64,000 nt of DNA. Source: a virus. Lineage: Duplodnaviria; Caudoviricetes. This document shows positions 3,414 to 50,853 of the stretch, piece by piece. Position 1 is the first letter of the stretch; every line of letters starts with the position of its first letter. The translations under genes and the position numbers were made by a program. The notes under the pieces were generated by a model. That model searched no databases and was not told where the DNA came from. It worked only from the letters and a program-made list of their open reading frames with translations. The stretch covers positions 37,226-101,225 of IMG/VR virus record IMGVR_UViG_3300037067_007020, one strand, 5' to 3'.

Positions 3414-4076
3414 TTAGTTCATAAAAAATATTTTTACACAAACTCCACTGTTTTCAACCATTCGTGTGCAATTTATCCCATCGGTTTTTGGTTCTCCTGT
3501 TGATATATTTACACAGTCAGAAGTATTGGCAATTCCTGGGTCAGCAAAAACAGAGAATTTGGATGTGTCTACATATTCTAAATATATACCTATTCTTCTT
3601 CCTGTACTAGTGTGATCTAATTGCCAAGAATCAGAATGTTCTATATTAACCTTAATTGTTTTGCCCGAAATCATTCCGTCTATACTGTCAGCATAAACAG
3701 ATGAGGATTTGGCATCGTTATAATCATTTCTTGTTATCTGATTTGTAGAAACCAGATTAATAATGTTTGGTTTAGTATTCATTCCATGATTAAAAATATG
3801 TGAACCGGGAGTATCAATATAAATCCAATCAGATTCCCAAGTATTAAAAATTTCGTTAGTCGATTTAAACTCAGATAAAATCGAAAGATCGTCTATTGTC
3901 AAAGGTCCTATGTTAACACCAGAAACTAAATCTGAACTATCGGTTCCGTTGTGTGAATGATTGTAAAGAGTTTCCTGTTCCAAATAATAATGATTGTAAT
4001 TTTGAAAACTCTGTGAATCAAAAACTTTGCCTTCGCTTAGTCCAGAAATATGTGTTTGTTCTATATAAGTACTCAT
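3414..4076 (-). CDS. short tail fibre/receptor-binding protein, paralog 3
   Basis: N-NH-YL...HSHNG N-terminus and W.SDW...H.M...P motif shared with the two upstream ORFs. Confidence 0.55.
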   Translation of the reverse strand: MSTYIEQTHISGLSEGKVFDSQSFQNYNHYYLEQETLYNHSHNGTDSSDLVSGVNIGPLTIDDLSILSEFKSTNEIFNTWESDWIYIDTPGSHIFNHGMNTKPNIINLVSTNQITRNDYNDAKSSSVYADSIDGMISGKTIKVNIEHSDSWQLDHTSTGRRIGIYLEYVDTSKFSVFADPGIANTSDCVNISTGEPKTDGINCTRMVENSGVCVKIFFMN

Positions 4077-4100
4077 TTTTATTTTCCTCTTTAGAATGTT

Positions 4101-4664
4101 TTAAAACAAACAAACTATTCTGCAATAACAATTCTCAGTCATTCCTGTATAAAACAAAGATGTTCCTGCTGAATCTTTTCCTTCGTTAAACTGAACCGTA
4201 ACTGAATCAAAATTTATATCATAACAATAAAATCCTCTAGTTTGAAAACTTCCTCCGTTAGAATTTTTCATATCTAATTGAGCAATCTGATAACGTACGG
4301 GAGGATTTATTGTTCCGTCTGCTATTTGACACTGAACTAATTTTGGGAATTTTTGTGCATTGTGAGCAAATACAGTAGCGTTTGTTTTGTCAACAGAAGT
4401 CCAATCTGATATATATAAATACCCTCCGTCTTCAATTAATCCCAATAATTTCGATAAGGTAAGATTAGTACTTTTTATAGTGTCTGTAACAAAAGGTCCG
4501 TGGTTTACTGTATTCTTCAATTCTCCACCATTTCCATAATTGTTATGATCATGTTCTTCGACTATTATAGTATTGAGGTATTCATGATTTTTATTTTCAT
4601 AAAAACCATTGATTACGTCGCCTTTTTTATAAATATATGGTATGTTTGTTCCTGTAGCTACCAT
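4101..4664 (-). CDS. short tail fibre/receptor-binding protein, paralog 2
   Basis: ENKNHEYL...HDHN; YISDW...FAHNAQKFPKLV. Confidence 0.55.
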   Translation of the reverse strand: MVATGTNIPYIYKKGDVINGFYENKNHEYLNTIIVEEHDHNNYGNGGELKNTVNHGPFVTDTIKSTNLTLSKLLGLIEDGGYLYISDWTSVDKTNATVFAHNAQKFPKLVQCQIADGTINPPVRYQIAQLDMKNSNGGSFQTRGFYCYDINFDSVTVQFNEGKDSAGTSLFYTGMTENCYCRIVCLF

Positions 4665-4681
4665 TGTTTTTCCTTTTTTTT

Positions 4682-5236
4682 CTAAACTAAAAGTAATATT
4701 CTGTACATATATAAAGGACTTGCAGTATAAAATCCTATTTTTAGTGTTAATTCTGTCGCAGATATATCTCCTATCTGCGCTCCGTATTCGTAAACAACAT
4801 CATAATGTTCGCTACGATAGTTGTTGCTCCACGAATTTTTAACTCCAACGTCTCCTTCGCTTTCAGCAACTTCTTCTTGCAAAAAAGAAAATGTCGGTAT
4901 TATACCTAAAGTATGTTTGATAGTTTTCCAATAATAACATACGTTTTTGTTTGGACGATCTGGATATACTTTAGTAAAACCATCTTCTGAGTCAAACTGT
5001 TTCCATCCACTATCCCAATGTTTAATCGTGTCTTCAATATTAACTTTGTTTTTTATAATCAAACTATCTGTAGTAAATACTCCTGATACACTAGCTTCTT
5101 CTAAAGGAGAACCAAAACTACCGTCATGTGTATGATACCATAAGTTTCTTTCAAGAAATTTGTGATTAACATTTTCATTTTTGTAGTCAACAAATTTATC
5201 GTCTTCGTATATGTGAGGTATTTTGTCGTATGTCAT
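4682..5236 (-). CDS. short tail fibre/receptor-binding protein, paralog 1
   Basis: ENVNHKFL...HTHDG; WDSGW...HTLGIIP. Confidence 0.55.
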   Translation of the reverse strand: MTYDKIPHIYEDDKFVDYKNENVNHKFLERNLWYHTHDGSFGSPLEEASVSGVFTTDSLIIKNKVNIEDTIKHWDSGWKQFDSEDGFTKVYPDRPNKNVCYYWKTIKHTLGIIPTFSFLQEEVAESEGDVGVKNSWSNNYRSEHYDVVYEYGAQIGDISATELTLKIGFYTASPLYMYRILLLV

Positions 5237-5246
5237 GTATGTTTCC

Positions 5247-5774
5247 TTAAAAAACTATGTTATATTCTCCAATAACTACTTCGTTATTGTTTTTAAAAAA
5301 ATCAAATCCAGTTGTTCTACAAAATAGTAAAGGAGACTCTCCACTAAGTCCAGTCATTACTAATCCTAGTTCTCTCCAATTTCCTACGTGTTGACCAGAA
5401 GGAGATGCAAAGGTAAGTTTCATGATTCTTTTCGTTTGAGCATAATTTGTTTCCCATGTATTATTGTCAATGTCAGATATAAAATTATTTACAGTATCTT
5501 CTGTGTCATTTATTTGTCTTATTGTTGTTCGGTTTGCTGTATCGTACATTGAACTAAAAACGGTTTTAGGATTTTCTTGTTCGTCAGAATATCCTACTAT
5601 AAATTTATTAATTTTTCTTGTGTCCAAATATCCACTAACAAAATTTTGTTTAAACATTTTAGACTCTATCAGTTCAACAAACTGATCAACAATAACATTT
5701 GAAGAATTAATTTCCTCAACTAAATTGTTATTTTCATCATATTTTTTAAACGAAAAAAATCCGCCTATATTCAT
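5247..5774 (-). CDS. tail/baseplate fibre-attachment protein (tail-collar-fibre-like), paralog of 5786-6541
   Basis: G.F...N.I.....W.ELGL...LFCRT...K pattern; position after the tail hub. Confidence 0.5.
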   Translation of the reverse strand: MNIGGFFSFKKYDENNNLVEEINSSNVIVDQFVELIESKMFKQNFVSGYLDTRKINKFIVGYSDEQENPKTVFSSMYDTANRTTIRQINDTEDTVNNFISDIDNNTWETNYAQTKRIMKLTFASPSGQHVGNWRELGLVMTGLSGESPLLFCRTTGFDFFKNNNEVVIGEYNIVF

Positions 5775-6545: not shown

Positions 6546-9500
6546 TTAAATCTCGATTTGTTGAATTTTAGATACCTGAGAAGCGTTTTTAATTATATCA
6601 TATCTGCTTTTTATTTGGTCTTCTGTTAATATTCCGCTATGCATTGCAATCGTATCTATATAAACAGCAGTCGAACCATTGTACAGATTAACGGTGTGTG
6701 TATCAGTAGCAAATCTTCCTATTTCTAAAGGTAAAGTCAGATCATCCCCAGCTTCTACAAAAGTACTATTGGCAGGAAGAGAAACTGTTTCTCCTACATA
6801 TGTTCCGTCTATATAAACTTTTCCAGAAACATCGTTTCTTATAAAAGCATAATAATGCCATTTTCCGTCATCTATCGGACCACCTATTATGTCTTGAACT
6901 GCCAGTGATGTGTTATAATTGGTTCCACTACATGTAAATGTAAAACTATAGTTTCCAAATAGTTGATGTATGCCTATTTGATCAATAGTTTGGCCTGTTC
7001 TGCCTATGTTATAAAACATATCGTATGTTTGAAATCCAGCTAATGCTCCTGTATCATATTTCATGACAGTTTCTAGTGTATAAAAAGGATAGTTCATAAA
7101 ATTTTGTCTTGGAGTTGTAAATGTTTCGGCCCAATCTGTTCCACAACCAGAAAAATAAATCGCATTTCCGTTTATAAAACCAGTTGAGATTGTGCCACTA
7201 ACAAGACTTCCTGCATACTGACCTATTACTTCATTTGTTACATACCCTGAAGTAAATGTTGTTGATAATGTATGTTTCAACTTTGTGTTATCTAAAATAG
7301 GAAGTGTTTCTTGTGTTGTTATGTTATATCTTTCAAGCTTTAAACCATAATCCAAACCTTTGTTATAGTGTCGAGTAGAATTATAATCTTTTGGTCTTTC
7401 GATTTTTTCAGAAACATCGTTCCAAAATTCTAAGGGATTATATTCCGTACTAGTTTTTCTCATAATATCAAACAAATCTTTTAGCGTTTCGTCATATCTA
7501 GGTTCTTCGTTATTAAGATTAACATGGGTCTGAACAAGACCATTTTTGTAAGTATGACTAATGCTTACTGATGTATTTTTTATTTCTGCATCCTCTGGAA
7601 CTTTAGAGTTCCATTTAGTATTTGTGTTTCCAATTATGTTTTTATTATAAAAAGATTTGTCTTTCATTTGGTCATGATAAAATCCTCTTATGTTGATAAG
7701 TTCGTTTCTTTTTAACGAAATGTCTCCAAATGGCAAATCAAATTCTATTGATTTAGAAGGAAATGCCGATTTATCAAGTTCTGAAAGAATAACTAAATCT
7801 GCTGCCGAATAACTTGTTATGTTGTTATCGTTAATAGTTTTCTTTCTTGAACCATATATTTCAACAGATTCTTGTACCTTTCCCGTTCGTTTAACAAGAG
7901 TTTCTCTTTCGTCAGACCATTTAGAATCATAGTTTGCAACAAAAATAGCATTTTCAAATATAGGTTTGTTGGCAGAGTCTTTTTTTATGTTTGGCAATAT
8001 GTCATTAAATATTATGTTATTGTTTGTTATTGTAACATCAGAATCGGAAAAATAATTAAATCCCATGTTATTAATGCCGATTCCTGAAACAGTTGTTTCT
8101 ACATTAGTTATGTTGTCAGGATAAATCCAAAATTGATCTTGATCTTCTCCTGTAGTATTAAAATTTGTAAATCCATCTGGAGGGTTAAAATCTAGTCCAA
8201 CAAACAAGTCTTTTCCGTTTGTCATTGTGTTTGTATACAATAAATCATAATTGCTGTTTGTGCTAGTTATTATTCTGCCTTTTAATCCGGCATTTGTTCC
8301 TTTAACTATCAAAAAATTCCAATCAGAATATGTTCCGCTTCCAATCATTGTTTCTTTTACGGGAAAATAAGAACTCCAAAATCCTGATAGATATGTATCA
8401 TGATAATATTCAGACTCTTCTCCTGATGTTGCAACAAAATTCATTACATTAACACCTTCTACCATTCCTTGTGGAAGTGCATACAATTTCCAAGTTCCTG
8501 AAGAAGATGTTGTATCTATCGGATATTCTGTTGTAAGTTGTTTTGTATCATCAGAAAATATGTTTATGTTGTTAAAAGAAGACTTTCCTTCAATTCTTTC
8601 AACAACATTTCCTCCGATTAACTTAATTTCATTAATTATTTGAGAAGAATCTTGTGTTTTTTTAAAATTTTGTATGTCATGTTTTCGATAATATACTTTA
8701 TCTGGGTATGTGTTAGGTACTCTGAAGTAAAGTATTTCTTCGATGTCTCCATTTTCATTAATTCTAGGTTCTATCCAAAAATTAGCTCCAACTTGCTTGG
8801 CAATTCGGTCAATAGCATTAGGAATATTTTCTTCATTAAATATTATATACTCTATGTTCGATATATTAACTGGTTCGTCGGTTACATAGTTTCCATTTTC
8901 ATCATAAGTTCCGCCAATAGATTCGTCCGTATACGAAACCCTAGTTCCTTTATAAAATTCATCTATTATATGTTTTACAATATCTTTTGCAGTTCTATTA
9001 ATATAAACATAGTTGACTGTGTTATAATTAAGTTCGTGTAATGCATCTATAGCCTGAACCTGTAATATAGACGAATCATCATCCGATTGTCCTACTTGTG
9101 TTACATTTCCAACAAATATTATGTCAGAAGAAAAATCAATAGAATTATTTTCGCTGTTACCAAAAACTGCTATCATACAATCTGTATCTATTTCTCCAAT
9201 TTCCTCGTATCTTCTTTTGTGTTGTAAATCTAGAGTAGATGCCGTTTTGTTTATTCCTAATTTTAAATTAATGTCATCGATATCCATTGCAAGGTCTTTG
9301 TTTTGCATCCATTCTCTATTTGACCCAAAATAACGAATCGCAAGTTTGGATTGACCTTTGTTTAATTTTTTATTATGCCCTTGAACAAATCTTTCGGGAC
9401 AATATTTTCTGTTTCCGTTAATATAAACAGGAATGTTTGCTATTCTATAACCTTCCCCATTAGATTTATTCACATAACCCATAATACGAATTAAACCCAT

Positions 9501-11444
9501 TTGAGGACTATCTGAAAGAAGACTTGAAAAAGGAATTTTTGTCCGTATATAAAATTTTGTACTTCCATGAGGAGCTATTGTTCCTATAGAAAGTCTTTTT
9601 GCATAAAATTTAGAAATAATGTATTTTTCCATATCTGGGTCTATTGTCAATAGATTATCTAGGGCATCGTCTAGATTTCCTAGATACTTTCCATTAAGAG
9701 TTTGACCTTCTAGTAGATATTGCATCATACTAACCCAATTGGAACGATCTTTGCTTATTTCTAAATATTTATACAATTCTGAACTTGCTTTAACAAAATC
9801 CTGATATGTTTCTGTTGTTTGAAATCTCTGCATATAAGGAGGATTTACAACACTGACCGAGACATCTGTCATATATTCCTCACTCGTATTAATAATTTCT
9901 ACCTCTTCGTCATATCCTTGTCTTCCATAAGGACTGTCTTTCATTTCTATAGTCTGTTCTGGATTTATTTTTATACAGTCGTTAAAAGACTCATAATGTA
10001 ATTCTAACAACTGATTAAAATACAACCCAATTTCATTATAAGACTCATAACCAGTTTCTCTTATACTTGTGCCAAAATAAGGAAGACTAAAAAAATAATC
10101 TCTGTTTGTATCATTAAACGTATAAGAATTGTTCGTTAATGATTCGGACATATTAACTACTAGATTTTGTTGATATGATGTATATGTATTCCCTATGTGC
10201 GGAACAAGTGTTATATACGACTGACCTTTTGTTCCTGCAAATATTCTAAACGGAGAAAAAATGTGAACTAAAGGAATCATTCCTTGTCCAAATCCACCGT
10301 CAGGTCTTCCTTCTATTCCTTGCATTTTGTCTGTGAGATAATTCCATTTTCCGTTACATAACATTCCTCCGGGATACTGAGTTCCGTTGTTAACCAATGA
10401 CGATTCAGCAGTCATTGATATGTCTGTGTCATATACTTGAAAATTTCCTCCACACCTTAATGCTATTGCTTTCATTACTTTCCGTTCGGTATTGTTTGCA
10501 TCATAATCAACGATTTTGCCTTCAACAACAATTCTTCCAAAAAAAGTATCTGCGTAATAGTCCATTTGACCACTAGGCAAAGAACCGTGTATTATTCCGG
10601 TTTTATTCCTAATTGAATCATATCCTACTTCTGCCCACTCAGCACCATTGTTTCTTACATACATTGTTTTTGTTTCGCCAGATGCTATTGTTCCTACTGA
10701 TAATTTATATGTTCCACTAAACCAATTAATTTTATCTGCTGAAAATTCAAATTTATCTGACAAAACAGGAGTTTTTCCACTAGGACTGTTTAAAAATACC
10801 TCTGTTTCTGTTAATGAATTGTTAAATTTGTTTGTTATGTAAAAAGGAGTCCAAGGAGACTTAATGTCTGAGACATAGGTAATTCCCGGAAGCATTATTT
10901 GTGATATGGACTCATAATCAACTCCATATTCTTCCCAGTACCCAGCTTTTTGGATTGTTCCGAACAAATTATTTTGCCCTATTGCAATATAGTCTCCTGT
11001 TGAATGACCACTTGTTCCAATCAAAAGTTCGACTAACTGTAACAGAGGTTGGTTATCCTGATTTCCAGAAACAGCGACTTTTAATTGATATATTCCAGAC
11101 AATCCATTACTTCCCCCATCATAAGTGCTTTCTAATAAATTGTTGCCCGATGTTTGAGACACTGTTGTATTGGACAAAGAAGTCCATGTTGTTCCATCAG
11201 AAGATATGTATGTCAGAATTTGATCATAATTTCCGTTAGAAGGAATGTTGTAATGACAATGAACCTTTGCATTTCCTCTTCCGTACCAAGCATCTCCTAG
11301 ATTCCAAGTGTATGTTTCTCTTTCTGAAAGCGAAGTATCTAGGTTTCCGTCGGTAAGTTGTTGAACAGGATTTGCACTACTGTTGTATCCTATAACATTA
11401 AATATAGCATCGGTATTCTGAGATTCTGTATAATATCTTGTCAT
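6546..11444 (-). CDS. tail tip/hub (Tal-like) protein with N-terminal discoidin/Ig-like domains and C-terminal LamG (concanavalin A-like) domain
   Basis: 1632 aa after Dit. LTDGNLDT/YISSDGTTWT at the N-terminus; hub-like IFVGNVT..VQAID..IAKQVGANFWI..IINEIKLIGG; LamG DDGKWHYYAFIR..VYIDG..ILTEDQI. Confidence 0.75.
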   Translation of the reverse strand: MTRYYTESQNTDAIFNVIGYNSSANPVQQLTDGNLDTSLSERETYTWNLGDAWYGRGNAKVHCHYNIPSNGNYDQILTYISSDGTTWTSLSNTTVSQTSGNNLLESTYDGGSNGLSGIYQLKVAVSGNQDNQPLLQLVELLIGTSGHSTGDYIAIGQNNLFGTIQKAGYWEEYGVDYESISQIMLPGITYVSDIKSPWTPFYITNKFNNSLTETEVFLNSPSGKTPVLSDKFEFSADKINWFSGTYKLSVGTIASGETKTMYVRNNGAEWAEVGYDSIRNKTGIIHGSLPSGQMDYYADTFFGRIVVEGKIVDYDANNTERKVMKAIALRCGGNFQVYDTDISMTAESSLVNNGTQYPGGMLCNGKWNYLTDKMQGIEGRPDGGFGQGMIPLVHIFSPFRIFAGTKGQSYITLVPHIGNTYTSYQQNLVVNMSESLTNNSYTFNDTNRDYFFSLPYFGTSIRETGYESYNEIGLYFNQLLELHYESFNDCIKINPEQTIEMKDSPYGRQGYDEEVEIINTSEEYMTDVSVSVVNPPYMQRFQTTETYQDFVKASSELYKYLEISKDRSNWVSMMQYLLEGQTLNGKYLGNLDDALDNLLTIDPDMEKYIISKFYAKRLSIGTIAPHGSTKFYIRTKIPFSSLLSDSPQMGLIRIMGYVNKSNGEGYRIANIPVYINGNRKYCPERFVQGHNKKLNKGQSKLAIRYFGSNREWMQNKDLAMDIDDINLKLGINKTASTLDLQHKRRYEEIGEIDTDCMIAVFGNSENNSIDFSSDIIFVGNVTQVGQSDDDSSILQVQAIDALHELNYNTVNYVYINRTAKDIVKHIIDEFYKGTRVSYTDESIGGTYDENGNYVTDEPVNISNIEYIIFNEENIPNAIDRIAKQVGANFWIEPRINENGDIEEILYFRVPNTYPDKVYYRKHDIQNFKKTQDSSQIINEIKLIGGNVVERIEGKSSFNNINIFSDDTKQLTTEYPIDTTSSSGTWKLYALPQGMVEGVNVMNFVATSGEESEYYHDTYLSGFWSSYFPVKETMIGSGTYSDWNFLIVKGTNAGLKGRIITSTNSNYDLLYTNTMTNGKDLFVGLDFNPPDGFTNFNTTGEDQDQFWIYPDNITNVETTVSGIGINNMGFNYFSDSDVTITNNNIIFNDILPNIKKDSANKPIFENAIFVANYDSKWSDERETLVKRTGKVQESVEIYGSRKKTINDNNITSYSAADLVILSELDKSAFPSKSIEFDLPFGDISLKRNELINIRGFYHDQMKDKSFYNKNIIGNTNTKWNSKVPEDAEIKNTSVSISHTYKNGLVQTHVNLNNEEPRYDETLKDLFDIMRKTSTEYNPLEFWNDVSEKIERPKDYNSTRHYNKGLDYGLKLERYNITTQETLPILDNTKLKHTLSTTFTSGYVTNEVIGQYAGSLVSGTISTGFINGNAIYFSGCGTDWAETFTTPRQNFMNYPFYTLETVMKYDTGALAGFQTYDMFYNIGRTGQTIDQIGIHQLFGNYSFTFTCSGTNYNTSLAVQDIIGGPIDDGKWHYYAFIRNDVSGKVYIDGTYVGETVSLPANSTFVEAGDDLTLPLEIGRFATDTHTVNLYNGSTAVYIDTIAMHSGILTEDQIKSRYDIIKNASQVSKIQQIEI

Positions 11445-11456: not shown

Positions 11457-13163
11457 TTATATGTATCTATCTGTCCATTTAACTAGAAAATCTATATCTA
11501 CTAAATTTTCGGAATCTGTGTTGATTGTCCATTTTGTATAATCATCGTTTTCTAAATAAACAAAATCTGTAATTGTTGTTGTTTTGTTTATTCTGTTTAT
11601 ATATATGTTGTTAGCATAATTGTCTTTTATTCCTGTAGAAATATCATATTCTTTAACAGTTTTTTCTAATGTGTCTATTTCTAAAAGATGATCTGATTCT
11701 AGTGTTCCAAAATATGATATTCTTCCTTCTTCTAAAGAACCAGACGAATAGTGTATAATGTCAAATCCATCTAAATCGATTAGGCCTCTATTAATGACCT
11801 GAATACGAGGATAAATTTTATAATTTCCAGCTATTGGTATATTTCCTCCTGCTTTTGTATATTCTAAAAAATCATTTGCATATAAAGAGCAACCACTTTG
11901 GTGTACTAACTGATCTGTTTTGTCTGTTAATGCTCTAGTAGCATATTGTGTATAATTAGAAACAAAACCCGATATTTTATAAGTAAAATCTCCTCCGTCA
12001 TTTAGACCTTTTATATACCCACTTATATCTCCTAAAGTTACAAATTGAGAAGCCGTAAAAACTTTGTCTTGTAACAGAACATTTCGATAAATTCCTGAGT
12101 AAATAGGTTCATATGCTATTCCGTACAATCCACTAGGATGCCATGTATTTCGTGTATAAGCTGAATTAAAAGAGTTACCGTGGAGATAGTCTGCATTTAA
12201 TAAATTAATGTCACCTGACACAGAATATTCGTTTATACCGCTCACAAGATTTTCTATTGTAGAATAGTCTTGATATAAAAACTGTATTTCTGACAATCCT
12301 GATGTAAACATTATTTTATCAGAATCTATTGTCATTGTTCCGTTAAAATATGAACAAACTTTAAAATAATCGGTATATGTTTTTATATAATCATCCGTTA
12401 TTATTGCATATGCATTTGTTCCTCCTTGACCTGAATATGTAAAATTTCCTATCAATGAACGAGATATTTTGGGCTGATTGTATAAAGTATAAGATATGTT
12501 AGACTGATTGCCAGATACGCTAATTTCTGAACTAAAAATACATCCGCTTGTTTGAGTATCTACTATTTCGTAATATCCTTCGTTTAGTCCTGATTGTATA
12601 TAAAGTATTTTTCCTATGTCATTAGAATTAAATCCACTATAATTTTCTACATAATCTTGAGAAAAGAAATAATTTCCGCCATCTACTGTTCCATCTATAC
12701 CAGTTTTATCTACACCAGCAACTAACATTTTAGGAACCTGTGAATACCAAAAAGGGTCAATAATGTCAAATTCTATTGTTCCTCGAATATAAGTTCCCGC
12801 ATATCCTAATTGTTCCGTAAGAGAATCCTTTTTATATGATACTTTAACATATCTCTTAGGAGGGTCAAAATACAATTCAAGGGATTGATATGAAAGAAGA
12901 AGATGAATTTCTTGCATTATAGCATATATGTCTTCGTGTGTCGAAACAATAATTTCAACAGACATAGTTAATGTTTTTGGCATAAGACCACCATAAACTT
13001 CAAATCCACCGTCTCTTCCAAAAACAGTATATATTGACTTGTTTCGTTCTGGCATATCATACAATCCTTCTATACCAGTTATATATACATCGTCTTTAAA
13101 AAGATAATAATTGAGTCTGTCTGGTGTTCTTAGTGTTATGTTGCTATATCTAGTTGCTCCCAT
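11457..13163 (-). CDS. distal tail protein (evolved Dit with a large insertion)
   Basis: Immediately after the tape measure. GRDG...IEFDIIDPFWYS N-domain and GNYKIYPRIQV...LEIDT C-domain flank a ~300-aa insert. Confidence 0.75.
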   Translation of the reverse strand: MGATRYSNITLRTPDRLNYYLFKDDVYITGIEGLYDMPERNKSIYTVFGRDGGFEVYGGLMPKTLTMSVEIIVSTHEDIYAIMQEIHLLLSYQSLELYFDPPKRYVKVSYKKDSLTEQLGYAGTYIRGTIEFDIIDPFWYSQVPKMLVAGVDKTGIDGTVDGGNYFFSQDYVENYSGFNSNDIGKILYIQSGLNEGYYEIVDTQTSGCIFSSEISVSGNQSNISYTLYNQPKISRSLIGNFTYSGQGGTNAYAIITDDYIKTYTDYFKVCSYFNGTMTIDSDKIMFTSGLSEIQFLYQDYSTIENLVSGINEYSVSGDINLLNADYLHGNSFNSAYTRNTWHPSGLYGIAYEPIYSGIYRNVLLQDKVFTASQFVTLGDISGYIKGLNDGGDFTYKISGFVSNYTQYATRALTDKTDQLVHQSGCSLYANDFLEYTKAGGNIPIAGNYKIYPRIQVINRGLIDLDGFDIIHYSSGSLEEGRISYFGTLESDHLLEIDTLEKTVKEYDISTGIKDNYANNIYINRINKTTTITDFVYLENDDYTKWTINTDSENLVDIDFLVKWTDRYI

Positions 13164-17489: not shown

Positions 17490-17783
17490 TTACTTTTTAT
17501 TTCCATGTTCCGCTTCGTTTCTCTTCACTTCTACCATTTTATCAAACCAATCGTGAAATTTATTGGGGTCGTCTAATATTATGTCTGATGGTATTTCTAA
17601 ACCCCAAGAACCAATTTTTTCGTATGCTTTTTCGTAATACCTTAACCAATATGCTATGTAAACAAAAAAACTATCGACCTCTCCATACATCCAATCTGGA
17701 CCACAAAAAAAACTCTGTAAATCCATGTTATATCTCTTACAATACATATCTGCCGACTGTACTGTATGAGAGGTCTTTGCTAG
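17490..17783 (-). CDS. tail assembly chaperone GT extension (-1 frame)
   Basis: -1 frame is open from the slippery site (KLAKTSHTVQSAD-MYCKRY...) to the stop at 17490. Confidence 0.75.
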   Translation of the reverse strand, partial: LAKTSHTVQSADMYCKRYNMDLQSFFCGPDWMYGEVDSFFVYIAYWLRYYEKAYEKIGSWGLEIPSDIILDDPNKFHDWFDKMVEVKRNEAEHGNKK

Positions 17784-18397: not shown

Positions 18398-18398
18398 G

Positions 18399-18857: not shown

Positions 18858-18892
18858 ATTTCTCTCCTGTTCTTTTCTTTGTGTCTTTTCTT

Positions 18893-18929: not shown

Positions 18930-18943
18930 GTGAATACATAGTT

Positions 18944-25861: not shown

Positions 25862-25862
25862 C

Positions 25863-36686: not shown

Positions 36687-36688
36687 AA

Positions 36689-42520: not shown

Positions 42521-42943
42521 TTAAGCATATTCCTTTATTTTTGCAATAAGACTTGATTCTTTATTAACAGCACGATCTATTTCTTCACCATTATTGTCTA
42601 ATATTATTAACGTAGGTATAGAAGCATATTTATATTTCTTTATAGTTTCTTCAGTAGAATCTTCGTAGTCAAACTTAATACAGTTTTTATACAAAAATTC
42701 TTTGACTGTCTGACATTTTTTACAATTATCTTCTCCTAATAACAAAATATTTATTTTCATATTTTCTCCACATTCTTTAACTTGGTCCCAAAGTAAACCT
42801 AAACATTCTTGATCTGTGTCACATAATTCTAAAAAACTACAATATCCTATATCTTGTTGATAATCTTTAAACCAATAAGGACATTTATAAGAACCATAAT
42901 AACAATATACGCCAAAAGGAATTAATTTTTTATCTTTTTTCAT
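42521..42943 (-). CDS. Cys-rich domain fused to a glutaredoxin/NrdH-like domain
   Basis: C-terminal CKKC...SIPTLII thioredoxin fold; N-terminal CYY..CPYW...GYC..LLWDQVKEC. Confidence 0.7.
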   Translation of the reverse strand: MKKDKKLIPFGVYCYYGSYKCPYWFKDYQQDIGYCSFLELCDTDQECLGLLWDQVKECGENMKINILLLGEDNCKKCQTVKEFLYKNCIKFDYEDSTEETIKKYKYASIPTLIILDNNGEEIDRAVNKESSLIAKIKEYA

Positions 42944-45900
42944 TTAATTCTTCTATCTGATATTTAGTAAATTTCTTTCTGTCGTTGTATTCTCTTCTTT
43001 TTCCTATGTTATAATTTTGTACAGGTCTATAATATCCTACTACTCTTGAAAATACTTGACATTCTGAGCCACATTTAGGACATTTGAAAAATTCGCTTCC
43101 AATAAATCCATGGTTAGGACAAATTGAATATGTTGGAGTTAATGAAATATAAGGAAGTTCGTAATTTGTACATATTTTTTTAACAAGCGACTTAACCATT
43201 TCGGAATTATCTATACTTTCTCCTAGATAAAGATGAAATACGCTATTATGAACTAATAAATAACCGTTGTTTCCTGCATAATAATTATTATTGTCTTCAA
43301 CTTCTATATCATAAAACAAATTTTCGGTTTGTATTTCTTGTATTTTTTTAACGAATACAACGTGTTTACGATTTATTTCTTTTTTATATTTTACTATAGA
43401 ACTTTTTGTTTGATTTTTGTTATGAAGAAAATTCATATTTTTTTGTATTTTGTACATTTCGTATGTAGGAATAGTAAACTTATATATAGTTTTTTCATTT
43501 AATCTTTTTGTATAACGAATATACTTTCGTATTGTTATTCCTGCCATTGAACACAAATCTATGAGTTCGTCTATCAATGTTTCTGAAACTGAATAGTAAT
43601 CAAAATCTCCGTCTCTTTTATTTATATGACCATCACTGTCTGCAAGTCCAGATAAAAGATAAAAAATGTTTTCTTTATTAATTTTTTCTTTGATTTTTGC
43701 AGGAATTTTTATATCATAACATTTTTTCCCAACACAAAATCCATTATTAATAAAAAAATCTGTTGCGTTCTTTTTGCTACAAGAAACAATATAACATCCT
43801 TTTTTCTTTGGTTGAACTGAAATATTGGTATCAAAATATTTATTAATGATGGTTCGAGTTTTATTTATTACTTGTTTATCGGACGTAAAAAATCTTATTG
43901 TGTGTTTAATTAAATTATTATGCCCTCTATTGTCTATATATTTACTAATACAACCGTCTCCTATAAAAAATCCTATTAACCACATCAATTCACTGTCATA
44001 ATCGTTTTCTTTGATGTCTCTAATGACATTTGTTGATGGCTGAATAATATGATCTTTTAATTTTAATTCGTCTGTTCTTTTTTCTTTTATAACAAATTCG
44101 TTGTTTTTTACATAATTTTCTTTACAATTTTTATTAAATCTTATGTGACTAGAAAACGCTTTTATATTTTTCACGGACTTTTGACATATAGGACAAACAT
44201 TATTGAATTTTTCTTTTTCAATAACAAAATATTTGTGTTTATCTGTTGTTTCTATATTAATATTTCCTTCTGTAGTAATTCTGTATTTTTTGTTTTTAGA
44301 AACATCATTAACAAAACCTTTTTTTACTTTTTTCCATTCCTCTTTTTTGTCTGTATTGTTAAAAGAAAGAACTTCAACAATTTCTCCTTTGTTTGTCTTA
44401 TTAACAATATCTTCTATGTTCATTCTTCCTTGTCTTGTTAATACTTTCGTTCCTTTTCTTAAACATCCTCCATCAAACATTTTCTGAATATCATTCTGAT
44501 GTTCTAGCGAAAAAAATATATCGTCCAATTTATATGAAGGTAATAATGTACTAGAAGTATAGTATATATTTTCATTGTCTCCAGAAACTATTATTTCTGG
44601 ATATTTCTTTTTGTCTATTTGTGCAAGTCGGGTACTTAATCCTTCTCCCGGAACTTGTTCGTGATTGTATAAATTTCCACTTCTTGTTTTAAATTCATTT
44701 ACTTTAAAATTAACAAAATCCATTATTTCTGTGGCAAAATCTTTTCCTTTTTCAGTTTCAATACCTTCTTTAATTAAATTAAGACATGCTTCGTGCATAC
44801 CATTAATTCCTATTGTAGAAAAATGATTGTTGAGATTTTCTAAATACCATTTAGAATAAGGATATAAATTATTTTGTAAATTGGAATTTAGTATTTTTCT
44901 TTTTATTTCTAATGAATCATATGCAACTTCTAATTTTTCGTCTAGTGTCTTCTTAAATTCTTTTTTGTTTTTGGAAAGATATGCTATTCTAGGAAGATTG
45001 ATTGTACAAACTCCTATGCTTCCTGTATTCAAAAATCCAGTTCCTCCCAATAGTCCAGAACTTCTTGCAAGTATTTCTTTTGTATTTATTTTAAGACGAC
45101 AACACAGACTTCTGGCATCTGAAGAATTAAGATTGCTATTTATATAATTGGCAAAATAAAAATATCCATATTTTCCTGTAGCCTTCCACATTGTTTCTAA
45201 ATATGCTTCGTCCCAATTAAAATCTTTGTCTATATTTATTGTAGGAATTGGAAAACTAAATGGCCTTCCATCTGCGTCACCTTCTAACATTACTTCAAAA
45301 AAAGCTTTGTTAATAAGTTTCATTTCTTCCAAACAGTCACCATATGTAAAATCTTGTTCCTTTCCTCCAAGTATGGCTTTTTTATTTTTTATTTCCAGAG
45401 GAACTGATAGGTCTAATGTTATATTAGAGAAAGGACTATTGTGAGCAATTATTCCATTCCATGTTACGAAATTTTGATTATTTTCTACAGAAATATCATA
45501 CACATGTTTTTCGTAATCTGTTTTTTTGATATAATGTACTTTAATCGGTTCAACATTTTCAAGAATTATTAAAATATTGTTTAGTTTCAATAAAAGAGTT
45601 TTTTTAATTTCTATCTCTTTCTTTATCATCGTTAAATGTTTATTAAATATTTCTGGGAGGTTTGTTGTTAAAAATGTGGTTGTGTTAAAAGAATTTTTTT
45701 TAAATCTAGGTATGTATAAAAAATCCAATAAGGAAACTAATTGTTGTTTATTGTTGAAATCTGTTGTTAGTATTTTGTTTAAAGATAACTTAACATGTTC
45801 TCTTAATTTATCAATGTCTTTATTTGATATTTTATGATATCCGATAAACGAATATTTTGAAATATGACTACTACAAAACAATTGACTTAATGTTTTGTTT

Positions 45901-47726
45901 AAAAAACTATAATCGTGTCTAAAATCTTTTATAGGATAGTTTAAATTTTGTATGTCTTTGAATTTTTTCGGATGTTTACATAACAACAAATTTCTTTTGT
46001 TCGATAATATATAAATGTTGTAATGTTTTCTGTTTGGTTTGAATGAATTTTTTCCTCTTATGATTTCTTTAACAGAAGTTTCTATTCCTACTTTAGTACA
46101 TAAATATACAATCCCTGTAACTAAATCTTTCGAAACGGTATCTATTATCGGACAATTGTGTTTTATATCTATATATCCATCTCCGTCTATTAGGCCGCTT
46201 AAAAATGCTAGTTGTACACTTTTTTTGCTTTTTAAAATAATTTCTGGAATTTTTTTAAAATGTGCATTATGTCCACACATTTCTCTGATAGTATAACTTA
46301 CATTTCTTCCAACTCCGAGAGAAATGTCCCCACATTCTTTTTCTTTTTGTTTTTCATGTGCCTTGTCTTTAATTTTAGTAAATGTTTCTGTTATTTCTTT
46401 TATACTATTAAAAAGATTTTTGTTATAAGAAGCAATACTTATAGAAGACCCTGATATGCTTCCATCGGCTACATATAAACCTAACAACCAACCAATTTTT
46501 TCGTCTACTTCTAGTTTCAATCCTTTGTTTTTCGTTCCTAGATTTGACGGAAAAGTTATATTTAATAATTTATCAGATTCGTTATTGTCAATATATTTTT
46601 TAGAAACTAAAATATGTTTTAGAGATTCTGAAGGTATATTTTCTACTATATCCAGATTTTCGTTTATAGAAAACAAAGAATGATTTTCTGTTACATTTAT
46701 TTCGTTTCCTCCAAATAATTTTATTTTATATATTTCATTTTCTGTATTATGTTTTATTGTTCCTGTTACTTTGTTTTTTGTTATTTCTCCTGTTTTTGTA
46801 TTCATTGATAATACTTTATATTCTTTATAGTTGTTATAATTTTCTACAAAATCTCCTATTTGTATGTTTTTCATAACGTCATTTTTATCAAACATTATAA
46901 TATTTTGATCATATGTCAAACTTTGACAGCTGAAGCGAGAAGGTATATTGACACTGAAAACAAAGTTTTGTATATTCTGTAGTATTTCGTCATAACATAA
47001 GTTATCTTTTTTAATAAAAGGAGCAAGCATTGTTGAAAAATTGTTTATTGCTATTGCACCAGCAAATTCATTGCTCATTACGCCAATAAAGTTAATTAAT
47101 TGATTAATTATTGATCTAAGATGTTTCGCTGGTTTAGAAGATAGATTGTTTCCAACTCCTTTAAATCCTTCTTTAAGAAGTTTTGAAATTTCAAAACCTC
47201 CACAGTAGATTGTTATTCTTGATAAATCTCCTATATGAATATCTCCATTTATATGTGCCTCAGATATTCTTTTTGGATATACAACATCCAACCAATATCT
47301 TGCGTTTATGGCTCCTGATTGATAAAATTCCAATCCTCCTACAGAATAATTGAAATTTGAATTTTCTTTTAGTCTCCAATCTTTCATATATAAATAATTG
47401 TCAGTAAGATTTTTTATATTTACATTTATGTTTTTTGCAGTAAGTTTATTGTATCTATGAATTATATATTTTTCTGCTATATTATTAAGATTGTTCTTGT
47501 ACAGAATGTCAGTTATACAAAGAGCAACAAGTTCGGCTGTTATTTCTCCGTTTTTTGACTTATCTTGTATATCTTCTAGTATTTCTTTTGTTATTTTATT
47601 ATATAATTCTTCGTCATAAGATTCGTCGTATTCGTAAAAAGAAGATTCAAGAGCTTTATATATTTTGCTCTTTTGAAATCTTTTCTTTGTTCCGTCTCTT
47701 TTTATTATTTTAGCAACTTTAGTCAT
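42930..47726 (-). CDS. nrdD: anaerobic (class III) ribonucleoside-triphosphate reductase with ATP cone and two inteins
   Basis: IIKRDG ATP cone, SLCCRL finger loop, TGSIGVCTINLPR, TPTYSICPNHG, glycyl-radical SRVVGYYRP; ~696-aa extein after intein removal. Confidence 0.95.
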   Translation of the reverse strand: MTKVAKIIKRDGTKKRFQKSKIYKALESSFYEYDESYDEELYNKITKEILEDIQDKSKNGEITAELVALCITDILYKNNLNNIAEKYIIHRYNKLTAKNINVNIKNLTDNYLYMKDWRLKENSNFNYSVGGLEFYQSGAINARYWLDVVYPKRISEAHINGDIHIGDLSRITIYCGGFEISKLLKEGFKGVGNNLSSKPAKHLRSIINQLINFIGVMSNEFAGAIAINNFSTMLAPFIKKDNLCYDEILQNIQNFVFSVNIPSRFSCQSLTYDQNIIMFDKNDVMKNIQIGDFVENYNNYKEYKVLSMNTKTGEITKNKVTGTIKHNTENEIYKIKLFGGNEINVTENHSLFSINENLDIVENIPSESLKHILVSKKYIDNNESDKLLNITFPSNLGTKNKGLKLEVDEKIGWLLGLYVADGSISGSSISIASYNKNLFNSIKEITETFTKIKDKAHEKQKEKECGDISLGVGRNVSYTIREMCGHNAHFKKIPEIILKSKKSVQLAFLSGLIDGDGYIDIKHNCPIIDTVSKDLVTGIVYLCTKVGIETSVKEIIRGKNSFKPNRKHYNIYILSNKRNLLLCKHPKKFKDIQNLNYPIKDFRHDYSFLNKTLSQLFCSSHISKYSFIGYHKISNKDIDKLREHVKLSLNKILTTDFNNKQQLVSLLDFLYIPRFKKNSFNTTTFLTTNLPEIFNKHLTMIKKEIEIKKTLLLKLNNILIILENVEPIKVHYIKKTDYEKHVYDISVENNQNFVTWNGIIAHNSPFSNITLDLSVPLEIKNKKAILGGKEQDFTYGDCLEEMKLINKAFFEVMLEGDADGRPFSFPIPTINIDKDFNWDEAYLETMWKATGKYGYFYFANYINSNLNSSDARSLCCRLKINTKEILARSSGLLGGTGFLNTGSIGVCTINLPRIAYLSKNKKEFKKTLDEKLEVAYDSLEIKRKILNSNLQNNLYPYSKWYLENLNNHFSTIGINGMHEACLNLIKEGIETEKGKDFATEIMDFVNFKVNEFKTRSGNLYNHEQVPGEGLSTRLAQIDKKKYPEIIVSGDNENIYYTSSTLLPSYKLDDIFFSLEHQNDIQKMFDGGCLRKGTKVLTRQGRMNIEDIVNKTNKGEIVEVLSFNNTDKKEEWKKVKKGFVNDVSKNKKYRITTEGNINIETTDKHKYFVIEKEKFNNVCPICQKSVKNIKAFSSHIRFNKNCKENYVKNNEFVIKEKRTDELKLKDHIIQPSTNVIRDIKENDYDSELMWLIGFFIGDGCISKYIDNRGHNNLIKHTIRFFTSDKQVINKTRTIINKYFDTNISVQPKKKGCYIVSCSKKNATDFFINNGFCVGKKCYDIKIPAKIKEKINKENIFYLLSGLADSDGHINKRDGDFDYYSVSETLIDELIDLCSMAGITIRKYIRYTKRLNEKTIYKFTIPTYEMYKIQKNMNFLHNKNQTKSSIVKYKKEINRKHVVFVKKIQEIQTENLFYDIEVEDNNNYYAGNNGYLLVHNSVFHLYLGESIDNSEMVKSLVKKICTNYELPYISLTPTYSICPNHGFIGSEFFKCPKCGSECQVFSRVVGYYRPVQNYNIGKRREYNDRKKFTKYQIEELNEKR
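43245..44465 (-). mobile_element. intein 2 (407 aa) with LAGLIDADG homing endonuclease and Zn-finger insert
   Basis: FDGG|CLRKGTKV...TTDKHKY...LIGFFIGDGC...LLSGLADSDG...FYDIEVE...LVHN|SVFH. Confidence 0.92.
45438..46922 (-). mobile_element. intein 1 (495 aa) with LAGLIDADG homing endonuclease
   Basis: FSCQ|SLTYDQ...VTENHSL...LLGLYVADGS...FLSGLIDGDG...VYDISVE...IIAHN|SPFSN. Confidence 0.9.
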
Positions 47727-47739
47727 TTTTATCTTTCTT

Positions 47740-49614
47740 TTATAACGTATCTAGAGCTTCTATACATCTAGATGCACAATAATCCCATGTCATGTGTTTT
47801 ACTGTTTCATATGATTTTTTTCCTAGAATATTCATTTCTATAGGATTTTCGTATGCAAATCTCATTTTTTCTTGCAATTCTTCTAAGTTAGGAATAACCC
47901 ATGATGTATTTGCGTATTGTTTATAAAGAAAATCCTGTCTAGCAGGAATTTGTTTTCCTTGTTCTAATATTAAACTGTTTGTTTTGTTACAAAATTCTGT
48001 CAATCCACCCCATGATGGAGCAATACACGGTTTTCCACATGCCATTGCTTCCATATTTGTAAGGCCAAAACCTTCGTTTCCTATTCCTATAAAACAATCT
48101 GCTCTTCTATATAATTTGGCTAAAGTTGGAATATCTACCCAACTTTCAATAAGTTCTATCTTAGGATTTTTACCATCTGGTCTTTGAAATTGTGAAAAAT
48201 AATCTATGGTATTCCTTGGTTTTAACATATCATTAAAATTACATTTCAATAATAGAGACACATTGTCATCTGATGTAAATTCTCTTGTATATGCCGCAAT
48301 TATATGATCTATGTTTTTTCTTGGACCATATATATTATTTACATAAAACACAAATCCTTTCAAATACGATAACTTTGCAGGTTTTATTTTCGGATTAAAT
48401 TCATCAAAGTTAATTCCATGAGGAATAACAAATATTTCTTGTTTTACACCACTATTTTTAAAAACATGTTTAACAAATTCTGTTGTTGTCCATACTTGGT
48501 CCATTTGATTAAGTTGTTCTACCCAATCTCGTGGTATGGTTGTTACTGATTCATGTGTCGTGTATCCTATTTTTTTCTTTCCTGCTGACAAAAATAATGT
48601 GCTTCCTTCTCCATATCTGACACATATTCTATCTTTAATATTTTTCTTTTTATTCATCATTTTGGATAAATGCCAATCATGTTCTCCTTGATATCCATGA
48701 TAATTTGTATCGTATATAGCTACATCTACATTTTTTGTTTTATCAAGAGCTTTTGTAAGATTTCTTAAAACTGTTACATAGCTCCATCCACCTTGTACAC
48801 TTCCTATAAAAGATAGTTGATATTTCTTTTTTTTATCTGAATAATCAATATTTTCAATTTTTTTATACAATTTATCTCTGTTCAATAATTTTGCCTTGTT
48901 TAATTCATTTTTTTCGTATTCTGTAAGAGAATTGTTTTTACTTGTCATTCCTTCTAGGTGATAAACAATAGAATTTGGTGAAATAACAGAAATATAATCT
49001 TTTGATCTTGCTTCATAACCTAACCAGACATCTTCACTATAAGCGGGGAAAAAAGTTTCGTCAAATATTTTGTTTCCTAGTTTCTCTATGAGATCGTTTT
49101 TTATATACAAACATGCTCCCGGACAATATTCTACTTCTCTTATTTCATTAGGCATATCGTGTGTATGGTTTCCCCATCCTAGAGAAGTTAAAAATCCTCC
49201 ACTAGACTGAATTTGTTGATTATTGTATAACATTATTGGTCCTATTATACCATATTCTCTTTTACTATAGGCAGTATTTTGTAATTCTTTTAACCAACCT
49301 TTTGTCATTGTAGTATCATTGTTTAATACAATAACATCAGAACCTTCCATTCTTATTTGTGTTGCAACGTTTATAGCCTGACCATAGCCATGATTTGTTG
49401 TTAAATTGATTATCCGTGCTTTGTTTTTTAATATGTTAAATTTTTCAAATTCTTCTTTTCTGCTTCCATTGTCTACAACAATTATTTCTTTATATATATC
49501 AGAAGTTTCTGTTTCAAAAATACTCATTACACATTGTAATGTCAAATCAGAATTGTTTATTGTTGGTATAATTATTGTTACAGGTATATTTGTCTTTTTA
49601 GATTTTTTAGTCAT
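47740..49614 (-). CDS. bifunctional GT2-GT4 glycosyltransferase
   Basis: N-half VDNGS...NHGY...VLNNDT...YSEDV; C-half IPHGI...RKN...EGFGLTNMEAMACG. Confidence 0.92.
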   Translation of the reverse strand: MTKKSKKTNIPVTIIIPTINNSDLTLQCVMSIFETETSDIYKEIIVVDNGSRKEEFEKFNILKNKARIINLTTNHGYGQAINVATQIRMEGSDVIVLNNDTTMTKGWLKELQNTAYSKREYGIIGPIMLYNNQQIQSSGGFLTSLGWGNHTHDMPNEIREVEYCPGACLYIKNDLIEKLGNKIFDETFFPAYSEDVWLGYEARSKDYISVISPNSIVYHLEGMTSKNNSLTEYEKNELNKAKLLNRDKLYKKIENIDYSDKKKKYQLSFIGSVQGGWSYVTVLRNLTKALDKTKNVDVAIYDTNYHGYQGEHDWHLSKMMNKKKNIKDRICVRYGEGSTLFLSAGKKKIGYTTHESVTTIPRDWVEQLNQMDQVWTTTEFVKHVFKNSGVKQEIFVIPHGINFDEFNPKIKPAKLSYLKGFVFYVNNIYGPRKNIDHIIAAYTREFTSDDNVSLLLKCNFNDMLKPRNTIDYFSQFQRPDGKNPKIELIESWVDIPTLAKLYRRADCFIGIGNEGFGLTNMEAMACGKPCIAPSWGGLTEFCNKTNSLILEQGKQIPARQDFLYKQYANTSWVIPNLEELQEKMRFAYENPIEMNILGKKSYETVKHMTWDYCASRCIEALDTL

Positions 49615-49635
49615 TTTTATGTATTTTCCCCAAGT

Positions 49636-50853
49636 TTAACCGAATACTGATGCAGTAATGCACGTATCTTTTCCTTCTGTTAATATATTCTCAATATTTT
49701 CATCAATCTTTTTAGCTAATTTATTCCAATTATAATTAAACGAAAGTTGGATATTCATTTCTGATATTCCATTAAATTCTTTTTTGTTATTTTTAAACAT
49801 ATTGTATAAACATTCTAATGTTTCTATGGCTTTTTTCTCATCTATACAAGCGAAATTTCTTTCAGCTTCTAATGTTATATATCCTGTTATAGGAATTATT
49901 GCTCCTGCTTTAATAAGTTCTGGCATACAGTATGCGTTTGGAACTATCGGAATTGCTCCAGCAGACATTGCTTCCATTAAAGGCATCCCTTGTCCTTCTG
50001 CATAACTTGTAGATAAATATATGTCTAATGAATTGTAAATAAGATTCATTTTTTCGTCTGTTATCGCTTTTGACGGATTAGTTATTATTATATTTTGTTT
50101 TTCTTTGACTACATTTCTTCTGATAAGATTTAATAAATCTGCTCCACTATGACTTGTATCACGTATGTCGCTTACTAATGTCATTAAAACATCATTTTTG
50201 TCTTTAGAAAATTCTGAAAATATTTTAACAAAAGAAGGAATATTTTTTCTAGTTTGATTTCTGGCTACATAACCTATGTTAAAAAAATTTTCAGGTATTC
50301 CTAAAGTTTGTTTTATTTTTATTTTATTCAGAGCATAAAATATGTTATGATTAATTCCATGATATTCTATGTCTATTTTTCTGGTAGGAATAAGTTCTTT
50401 TATGTTATTTTTAGCAAACTGCGACGATACTATTACAAAATCAAAAAACTTAAATATTTCTGCTTGTTGGTGAGAAACTGGACCTGAGTCTATGTTTGTA
50501 TAACACCCTGTATATATATTAGGAAAATTTTTATAAATTTCACCCATGTATCCAAAATTCCATTGATCTCCAAAACACAAAATAACATCTGGATGAAAAT
50601 CTTGTATTGCCCTTATAACATCATCTTTTTCTTCATAACAGTCTTTTCTTATAGAATAAACTGTATATGGTCTATTTTGATCTTGATTAATCTTAATTCC
50701 TTGATAAAATTGATGTCTTTCACATCCCCATGCAGCAACAGCTATATCATATTTGCTTTTTAAAAGATTTATAGTTTCTTTTGTTACGATTCCCATCCCT
50801 GTTCGCATATATGGGTTATCAGAAATCCAAAGTAATCTTCGTTTAGTCATCAA
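49636..50853 (-). CDS. glycosyltransferase family 4
   Basis: WISDNP..TGMG, YHGI, VARNQTRKN, EGQGMPLMEAM. Confidence 0.9.
   Translation of the reverse strand: MMTKRRLLWISDNPYMRTGMGIVTKETINLLKSKYDIAVAAWGCERHQFYQGIKINQDQNRPYTVYSIRKDCYEEKDDVIRAIQDFHPDVILCFGDQWNFGYMGEIYKNFPNIYTGCYTNIDSGPVSHQQAEIFKFFDFVIVSSQFAKNNIKELIPTRKIDIEYHGINHNIFYALNKIKIKQTLGIPENFFNIGYVARNQTRKNIPSFVKIFSEFSKDKNDVLMTLVSDIRDTSHSGADLLNLIRRNVVKEKQNIIITNPSKAITDEKMNLIYNSLDIYLSTSYAEGQGMPLMEAMSAGAIPIVPNAYCMPELIKAGAIIPITGYITLEAERNFACIDEKKAIETLECLYNMFKNNKKEFNGISEMNIQLSFNYNWNKLAKKIDENIENILTEGKDTCITASVFG

Follow-up and report, generated by a model that had tools for sequence, protein, structure and literature searches.

To our knowledge, glycosylation of virions by phage-encoded enzymes has so far been documented only for a few mycobacteriophages; Che8, Corndog and Myrna are reportedly the examples described by Freeman et al. 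in 2023. The DNA considered here (the window) comprises the final 64 kb of an IMG/VR viral contig of 101,225 bp (IMGVR_UViG_3300037067_007020), in which seven glycosyltransferase (GT) genes stand next to structural genes whose products carry an excess of the dipeptide Ser-Gly (SG). This combination is treated as a candidate virion O-glycosylation system, in which the phage GTs would modify serines in the sequence [V/I]-S-G. Gene coordinates are those of the window and, unless marked (+), refer to the minus strand; protein lengths are given in amino acids (aa).

In the mycobacteriophages, phage-encoded GTs glycosylate the capsid and tail tube (PMC12619734, PMC12363180), and the glycans are reported to be carried by the C-terminal ends of these subunits (PMC12619734). 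No acceptor motif was found in these two articles. The window system resembles this one in that the phage's own GTs are proposed to act on its structural proteins in the cytoplasm and so to shield the particle with glycans. It differs in gene content, with seven GTs plus deoxysugar and methyl-tailoring genes in place of the few GTs of the mycobacteriophages, and in its candidate sites, which are internal, number about 100, lie on the fibre, Dit arm and hub and have the Ser-specific form [V/I]-S-G. The window capsid protein has no excess of such sites, and the C-terminal capsid and tail-tube acceptors of the mycobacteriophages have no counterpart there. A tblastn search with two window GT2s against a phage collection listed no mycobacteriophage, the search not being aimed at Che8 gp110 or Corndog gp38.

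Bacterial TibC heptosylates serine and not threonine in beta-helix loops, and Ser313 of its substrate TibA is found in the sequence N-S-G-G (PMC4358343). TibC and AAH (which act on TibA and AIDA-I) carry out a cytoplasmic, lipid-independent hyperglycosylation of many serines in the loops of beta-rich proteins, as the proposed system would. TibC, however, is a heptosyltransferase of the GT-B type that resembles Glyco_transf_9, has an iron finger and adds single heptoses, whereas the window enzymes belong to GT2 and GT4, show no Pfam match to Glyco_transf_9 and are accompanied by a pathway that points to rhamnose and multi-sugar chains. The chlorovirus PBCV-1 uses its own multi-domain GTs and methyltransferase activity to place rhamnose-containing glycans on structural proteins independently of host membrane pathways; it differs in being a eukaryotic virus whose N-linked glycans are attached to the major capsid protein at atypical sequons. 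In mechanism the nearest analogue is TibC/AAH, in biology it is the glycosylation of mycobacteriophage virions, and the window has the defining features of neither.

Ser-Gly excess in the structural proteins

Expected dipeptide counts were obtained for each protein from 2000 composition-preserving shuffles. In the pooled structural module (3414-28562), SG occurs 98 times against 45.4 expected (z 7.8) and ranks first of the 400 dipeptides, followed by VS (65 against 36.3) and Gly-Thr. The reverse dipeptide, Gly-Ser (GS), occurs 35 times against 45.4. The non-structural genes of the window (SG 19, 21.5 expected) and the 37 kb of the contig outside the window (SG 28, 26.3 expected) are at expectation. 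The enrichment of SG is supported as a real, protein-level and Ser-specific property of the structural proteins.

The excess is highest in a 746-aa fibre-like protein (26001-28241), which has 27 SG and 4 GS (SG expected 6.5, z 8.8). This protein has a five-copy HxH repeat at about residues 63-250 and a LamG/ConA-like domain at about residues 408-629 (Pfam PF13385, E-value: 3.9e-13). It is followed by a 568-aa Dit-like protein (11457-13163; SG 14, GS 1; SG expected 4.2, z 5.3) and by a 1632-aa hub/Tal-like protein whose C-terminus holds a LamG domain (6546-11444; SG 19, GS 8; SG expected 10.5, z 2.9). Two small proteins with no family match also have more SG than expected: a 160-aa protein of the head-tail region (21587-22069; SG 5, GS 1; SG expected 1.3, z 3.5) and a 123-aa possible decoration protein (24010-24381; SG 3, GS 0; SG expected 0.8), encoded transcriptionally just upstream of the major capsid gene. 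The counts are not significant for a 520-aa protein (18944-20506; SG 5, GS 4; SG expected 3.75) or for the product of 3414-4076 (SG 4, GS 1; SG expected 1.9). No excess is seen in the putative portal (0 SG), the putative TerL (1), NrdD (7) or the GT2-GT4 fusion (2), nor did the shuffle test detect one in any of the other GT proteins. The tape measure protein (13202-17470; Pfam PhageMin_Tail, PF10145), with 11 SG against 8.1 expected and hence no excess, and the major capsid protein (23063-23962; PHROG major head protein, E-value: 2.5e-14) serve as internal contrasts. A first-pass annotation of the window, made from the sequence alone, had counted SG and GS by hand and predicted that SG would exceed shuffled expectation. 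The module total bears out this prediction, and all of the hand counts were reproduced except that for the GT fusion, which had been given as 1.

The residues around the dipeptide are also biased. [VI]SG occurs 41 times against 6.3 expected and [VI]TG 7 times against 6.4; because the threonine form is at expectation while the serine form is far above it, threonine is no substitute and the motif is Ser-specific. The extended pattern is [T/N]-x-[V/I/P]-S-G-x-hydrophobic. There is no enrichment of acidic residues in the flanks, and a hydrophobic residue or Thr follows the Gly, so that the analogy to proteoglycan xylosylation, drawn in the first-pass annotation, does not hold.

Several sources of artefact were considered and rejected. 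A motif at the DNA level is excluded by the serine codons at SG, which mix TCN and AGY in roughly background proportions, and by the absence of an excess from non-structural genes on the same strand; because both codon families are used, selection is taken to act on the protein. Paralogy or domain duplication was set aside because no BLAST match was found between the SG-rich proteins. Simple S/G-rich segments are ruled out by the asymmetry of SG and GS, the latter not being inflated. A motif of the form [S/T]-G-x-T was likewise discarded (SGxT occurs just 9 times against 3.9, with TG not enriched), and neither NG, DG nor TG is enriched in the structural module.

Part of the fibre signal is a repeat, since 14 of its 27 sites lie in residues 50-290, a stretch with five degenerate copies of V-S-G-x-[YF]-T-x-x-x-D-F-x-[IV]-H-x-H. 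The earlier statement that SG is not a simple repeat must be qualified for this region. It stands for the remainder, as the module still has 84 SG against 43.1 expected (z 6.9) when the fibre repeat region is removed and 57 against 34.5 (z 4.1) when both fibre and Dit are left out. Control phages show smaller departures. The observed/expected ratio for SG is 1.6 in the structural proteins of lambda (49 against 30.4), 1.1 in those of T4 (58 against 50.7) and 1.2 in those of the Che8 left arm (53 against 43), and the highest z for any single protein of these phages is 2.2. Among 24 unrelated structural proteins with LamG domains, z ranges from 0.2 to 3.0 and SG is about as frequent as GS. There is thus a mild generic surplus of SG in such proteins, and the window phage is far beyond it.

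Four Dit homologues (P0023-P0026) were recovered by exhaustive HMMER search, and two of them separate the motif from the fold. P0023 (51% identical) has 14 SG (z 6.5), nine of which are at window positions; several of the others lie 3-4 residues away, for instance at alignment columns 315/319 and 390/393. Between these two proteins, serine is conserved at 9 of 14 SG sites and at 10 of 34 other positions (Fisher p 0.05). On the P0023 contig (L002), the gene that follows is the counterpart of hub residues 16-311 (25% identity) with 7 SG against 2.1 expected, and the gene thereafter that of hub residues 319-639 with 1 SG; these 304-aa and 324-aa genes mirror the SG-rich and SG-free hub domains at 25-29% identity. 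P0025 (36% identical, aligned end to end) has only 4 SG (z 0.95), none at a window position, and because it aligns throughout without an excess, the fold does not require the motif. Fragments of the tape measure and hub on the P0025 contig (L003) have no SG excess and no other prominent dipeptide. On these alignments, the motif is kept by selection in one sub-lineage, counted by region and not fixed by position. Such regional maintenance would be expected of modification sites, and conserved tight turns could mimic part of it.

Within the proteins, the sites are unevenly spread. All 14 in Dit fall in residues 176-474, with none in the N-terminal ring domain (1-175), and the 19 in the hub form clusters at residues 99-291, 982-1120 and 1399-1603, with none at 292-981. 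SG sites avoid these ring and hub regions as well as the major capsid protein, the tape measure protein and the putative portal, and are concentrated in probable peripheral arms or domains. AlphaFold2 models of Dit and the fibre have low confidence (predicted local distance difference test scores of 43.5 and 46.1, respectively), the LamG domain being the only confident part. In this domain of the fibre, three of the four mappable SG lie in loops. A structural look-alike search (Atlas) with the fibre repeat region gave no usable match. The name Dit, taken over from the first-pass annotation, has weak fold support: Foldseek matches the N-terminal domain best to the lactococcal phage p2 baseplate and SPP1 Dit, with E-values of about 1e-3 on a low-confidence model.

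Glycosyltransferase and sugar genes

By coordinate, the first genes of the main sugar cluster are a GT4 gene (33101-34162) and a GT2 gene (34155-35558) with a 467-aa product, in which the N-terminal GT2 domain is clear and a second one is weak, just below the cut-off. In the sugar-tailoring block, an M15 peptidase (35568-36026) is followed by a CmoA-like methyltransferase (36036-36698; E-value: 6.5e-26 to CmoA, a carboxy-S-adenosylmethionine synthase, below the cut-off). The latter is an unusual neighbour for GT genes and might provide carboxymethyl instead of methyl decoration. Next are RmlC (36689-37243; 195.6 bits) and an RmlD-like protein split into two overlapping open reading frames (ORFs; 37251-37796 and 37747-38145). 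In a contig of an independent groundwater run (X3), a 1-base deletion at 37758 gives a fused 297-aa RmlD frame with the YxxxK motif; the split would be either an assembly error or a polymorphism. An FAD/NAD flavoprotein (38084-39163; PRK07208-like) and a methyltransferase-fold protein (39193-39825) precede three tandem small GT2 genes (39825-40613, 40528-41217 and 41458-42213), whose products of 229-262 aa consist of the GT2 domain alone. The first two are paralogues (40% identity). They overlap by 86 nt with the called TTG start, and translation of 39825-40613 probably starts at a site downstream of it.

An intein-bearing NrdD gene (42930-47726; 1598 aa) stands between this cluster and a GT2-GT4 fusion gene (47740-49614) and a further GT4 gene (49636-50853). 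NrdD has an ATP-cone, intein splicing domains and LAGLIDADG homing endonucleases, and probably contains two inteins. The window GTs belong to families PF00535 (GT2) and PF00534/PF13692 (GT4). Pfam agrees with the seven GT genes of the first-pass annotation; eight of its nine GT domains are clear and the ninth is the one just below the cut-off. RmlC, the flavoprotein and the methyltransferase-fold proteins that it had placed inside the cluster were all found there, as was the RmlD-like protein, in its split form. A hexapeptide-repeat (LbH) acyltransferase encoded elsewhere in the window (62908-63471 (+)) could be a sugar acetyltransferase.

No transmembrane segment is predicted in the proteins encoded between 28564 and 51769. 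The Pfam families of the ORFs examined include no initiating phosphoglycosyltransferase, no flippase or transporter and no polymerase or ligase, the membrane components of a lipid-carrier (Wzx/Wzy or ABC) polysaccharide pathway; host enzymes could supply such steps. Because the seven GTs are soluble and lack both transmembrane segments and accompanying lipid-carrier export genes in these ORFs, the cluster fits a cytoplasmic acceptor. It runs in the same direction as the packaging and structural genes and abuts them, directly upstream of the packaging genes; a simple scan of the region between revealed no convincing minus-strand terminator. This confirms the earlier description of GT genes on the structural strand upstream of terminase, the terminase being assigned by position. 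A related phage contig (L016) keeps the order thioredoxin-GT2-GT2, with GT2s 57-60% identical and 86% identity over a short C-terminal thioredoxin fragment. Its sample number is adjacent to that of the P0023 contig.

The three small GT2s have their best PDB matches to SunS, a ThuS-like chain, GmaR and GalT1, with E-values from 7e-8 to 2.7e-10 over the GT-A domain. SunS and ThuS are glycocin glycosyltransferases, and GmaR is the enzyme that transfers O-GlcNAc to Listeria flagellin. For GmaR (PDB 22ao), the E-values are 6.9e-8 (39825-40613), 1.1e-7 (41458-42213) and 7.3e-5 (40528-41217). The likeness is confined to GT-A, and the C-terminal TPR/anti-repressor region of GmaR is missing from the window proteins. 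The NCBIfam model of SunS (TIGR04195) gives 54.9 bits against a cut-off of 350, with the match restricted to SunS residues 62-211; the window protein has 251 aa and SunS 422. The first-pass annotation had noted a GT2 motif set shared with GmaR and SunS, which is correct at the level of the domain and does not extend to a peptide-binding domain. As evidence for a protein GT the likeness was downgraded: with the GT-A domain alone, a low SunS score and nearest cellular homologues in lipopolysaccharide (LPS) and Wzy loci, it does not discriminate.

A tentative model and its rivals

The favoured explanation, held tentatively and somewhat short of probable, is a stepwise O-glycosylation of peripheral virion proteins in the cytoplasm, at the serine of [V/I]-S-G, by the soluble GTs of the phage. 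The model is as follows. Inside the host cytoplasm, the phage would glycosylate the outer proteins of its virion, step by step and independently of lipid carriers, with soluble GT2 and GT4 enzymes using nucleotide sugars as donors. One donor would be deoxythymidine diphosphate (dTDP)-L-rhamnose, made when phage RmlC and RmlD finish a host-made 4-keto-6-deoxy intermediate, and methyl or acyl tailoring is possible. The acceptor would be the Ser of [V/I]-S-G at an exposed beta-strand end, directly before a Gly turn. Such sites would have built up in peripheral domains of the fibre, Dit arm, hub and some small neck or decoration proteins, and the virion would thereby be coated with glycan. We infer the attachment of sugar, the role of Ser-Gly as acceptor, the identity of the priming GT and the nature of the glycan, as well as the link between GTs and motif, from the statistics, lineage specificity and conservation of the motif and from the content and layout of the sugar genes.

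A number of observations weigh against this model. The major capsid protein (1 SG, 0.65 expected) and the 520-aa major tail protein have no excess, and subunits of this kind are the targets in the mycobacteriophage precedent. The flank pattern [T/N]-x-[V/I]-S-G-x-hydrophobic is compatible with a plain strand-turn-strand element as well. The remaining mappable site of the fibre LamG domain, S600-G601, opens a conserved LamG strand, and its Gly does not vary among homologues. Lambda, which has no GT, shows a smaller SG excess, so the signal is in part generic. On the enzyme side, the window GTs have no recognisable protein-binding module, and the nearest cellular homologues of 41458-42213 are in an LPS-core locus (with KdtA, heptosyltransferases and LpxK) and in Wzx/Wzy polysaccharide loci. 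Such a placement is expected of sugar-to-sugar transferases. The four-enzyme dTDP-L-rhamnose set (RmlABCD) is incomplete, consisting of RmlC and the split RmlD alone, the latter frameshifted in the present assembly; neither an NTP_transferase (RmlA) nor a 4,6-dehydratase (RmlB) was found on the 101-kb contig, which is about 71% complete. All of the relatives, the SG-poor one included, are on contigs of 1-5 kb. Virion O-glycosylation, as put forward in the first-pass annotation, is partly supported: the enrichment, the lineage specificity, the conserved serines and the soluble, co-directional GTs are consistent with it, and the pairing of a GT with the motif is putative.

It is also possible, though doubtful, that [V/I]-S-G is an unmodified structural idiom of this lineage, marking a strand end or tight turn, and that the GTs act elsewhere, most likely on host envelope glycans. 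A change in LPS, capsule or wall polymer could mask receptors, exclude superinfecting phages or prevent progeny from re-adsorbing to debris. Flanks that resemble beta-strand, turn and beta-strand, a mild SG excess in the lambda and LamG controls with no link to GTs, and SG positions partly kept even at 25% identity, as turns would be, are all consistent with such an idiom. However, the homologous Dit has equal aligned domains and is essentially devoid of SG, which argues that the fold does not need the motif; moreover, N-G, D-G and T-G turns are not enriched, Thr is no stand-in for Ser, and the sites slide locally while their number is kept. Action of the GTs on host glycans would agree with the LPS-core and Wzy homologues of the GT2s and with the presence of RmlC and RmlD in the absence of RmlA and RmlB, which implies reliance on a surface-sugar pathway of the host. 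It agrees less well with a cluster that has no membrane-associated or lipid-carrier enzymes and is placed with late, not early, genes.

Two other explanations dissociate the motif from protein glycosylation. That the Ser-Gly serines are the target of another modification or interaction unrelated to the GTs (phosphorylation, acylation, ADP-ribosylation, or binding of a chaperone or assembly factor of the host or the phage) is improbable. The statistics and evolution of the motif show that it is selected and are silent on its reader; the cluster also encodes two methyltransferase-fold proteins and a flavoprotein, and the hexapeptide acyltransferase is encoded elsewhere in the window. Among the ORFs examined, however, none was recognised as a kinase, an ADP-ribosyltransferase or another enzyme that modifies proteins, and methyltransferases among sugar genes are a better fit to sugar tailoring. 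It is very unlikely that the cluster glycosylates phage DNA, as in T4-like and other phages, and that the SG excess has nothing to do with it. Modification of DNA is the classical role of phage GTs, according to review statements quoted in PMC12619734, and the GT genes here flank NrdD and a thioredoxin gene. No thymidylate-synthase-like hydroxymethylase is encoded on the 101-kb contig (about 29% of the genome is missing), a C5 cytosine methylase is carried instead, and seven GTs, a rhamnose pathway and methyltransferases far exceed the needs of the known systems for DNA glycosylation.

Genome context and significance

The contig as a whole is about 71% complete with a G+C content of about 30%. 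It originates from a groundwater metagenome, and landfill metagenomes contain the same phage at low depth. Three other runs yielded contigs that are short, identical pieces of it and show no informative variation at the SG sites. Outside the window, the contig encodes PolB, DnaB, RecA, a C5 DNA methylase, PhoH and an AAA ATPase. The polymerase (L009:3944-7531 (+); contig 23944-27531) is a 1195-aa family-B enzyme with a weak primase small-subunit-like stretch near its C-terminus, and the C5 cytosine methylase is located at L009:12667-13530. A ClpP protease homologue (217 bits) is encoded in the window at 51890-52660 (+).

Judged by sequence comparison, the window phage is an orphan. The putative TerL (30661-32268) has no match in 50,697 phage records, Pfam or the PDB. 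Its one relative (45% identity) is on a 1.5-kb contig, L018, and bears a PT-HINT intein-like domain. The putative portal has no match in Pfam, PHROGs or the PDB, so that position is the sole basis for both labels as first given. The majority of the structural proteins belong to no Pfam or PHROG family. A viral contig collection queried with TerL, Dit, the Dit alignment and the tape measure alignment contained no related contig, and two metagenome scans yielded a single 5-kb tape measure contig as a relative. RmlC has one viral match at 39% identity, and because its cellular matches (at most 42%) are spread over mixed phyla, the host cannot be deduced from it.

The remaining structural genes include four for small distal tail proteins (3414-5774), with SG counts of 4 (3414-4076), 0 (4101-4664), 2 (4682-5236) and 3 (5247-5774). 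The first three proteins (220, 187 and 184 aa) have a common N-terminal motif, N-H-x-[YF]-L...H-x-H-[ND]-[GN], which resembles the HxH unit of the fibre, and they may be trimeric metal-binding fibre stems, for which the tip of T4 gp37 offers a comparison. In the region 17490-20506, the order of a 520-aa, a 152-aa, a 205-aa and an 85-aa protein followed by the tape measure protein resembles that of sheath, tube, chaperones and tape measure, and the 520-aa protein (18944-20506), earlier called tail tube, may be a sheath. In contrast with this sheath-like order, the Dit-like and Tal-like genes after the tape measure gene have a siphovirus-like look.

The locus is a natural contrast, with homologous tail proteins that have the motif (the window and L002) and that lack it (L003). 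The window contributes a within-family comparison (Dit, tape measure and the neighbouring hub gene) and an explicit specificity for Ser over Thr and for a preceding [V/I], and its SG-rich domains are small enough for co-expression with the GT genes. A more far-reaching proposal, conceivable if rather speculative, is that a cytoplasmic phage GT would read [V/I]-Ser-Gly as a Ser-specific acceptor code, that further GTs would build a methylated, rhamnose-containing glycan coating the fibre, Dit arms and hub, and that the window would exemplify an undescribed strategy, widespread among large uncultured phages, in which a sequon is paired with a GT island. If a short Ser-specific motif does mark the site of attachment, glycan-coated phages would be recognisable from their sequence alone, and many of the orphan GT islands of large environmental phages would be easier to explain. 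Such a coat would bear on the tuning of adsorption, on virion stability and on evasion of hosts and immune systems, and would be relevant to phage therapy and engineering.

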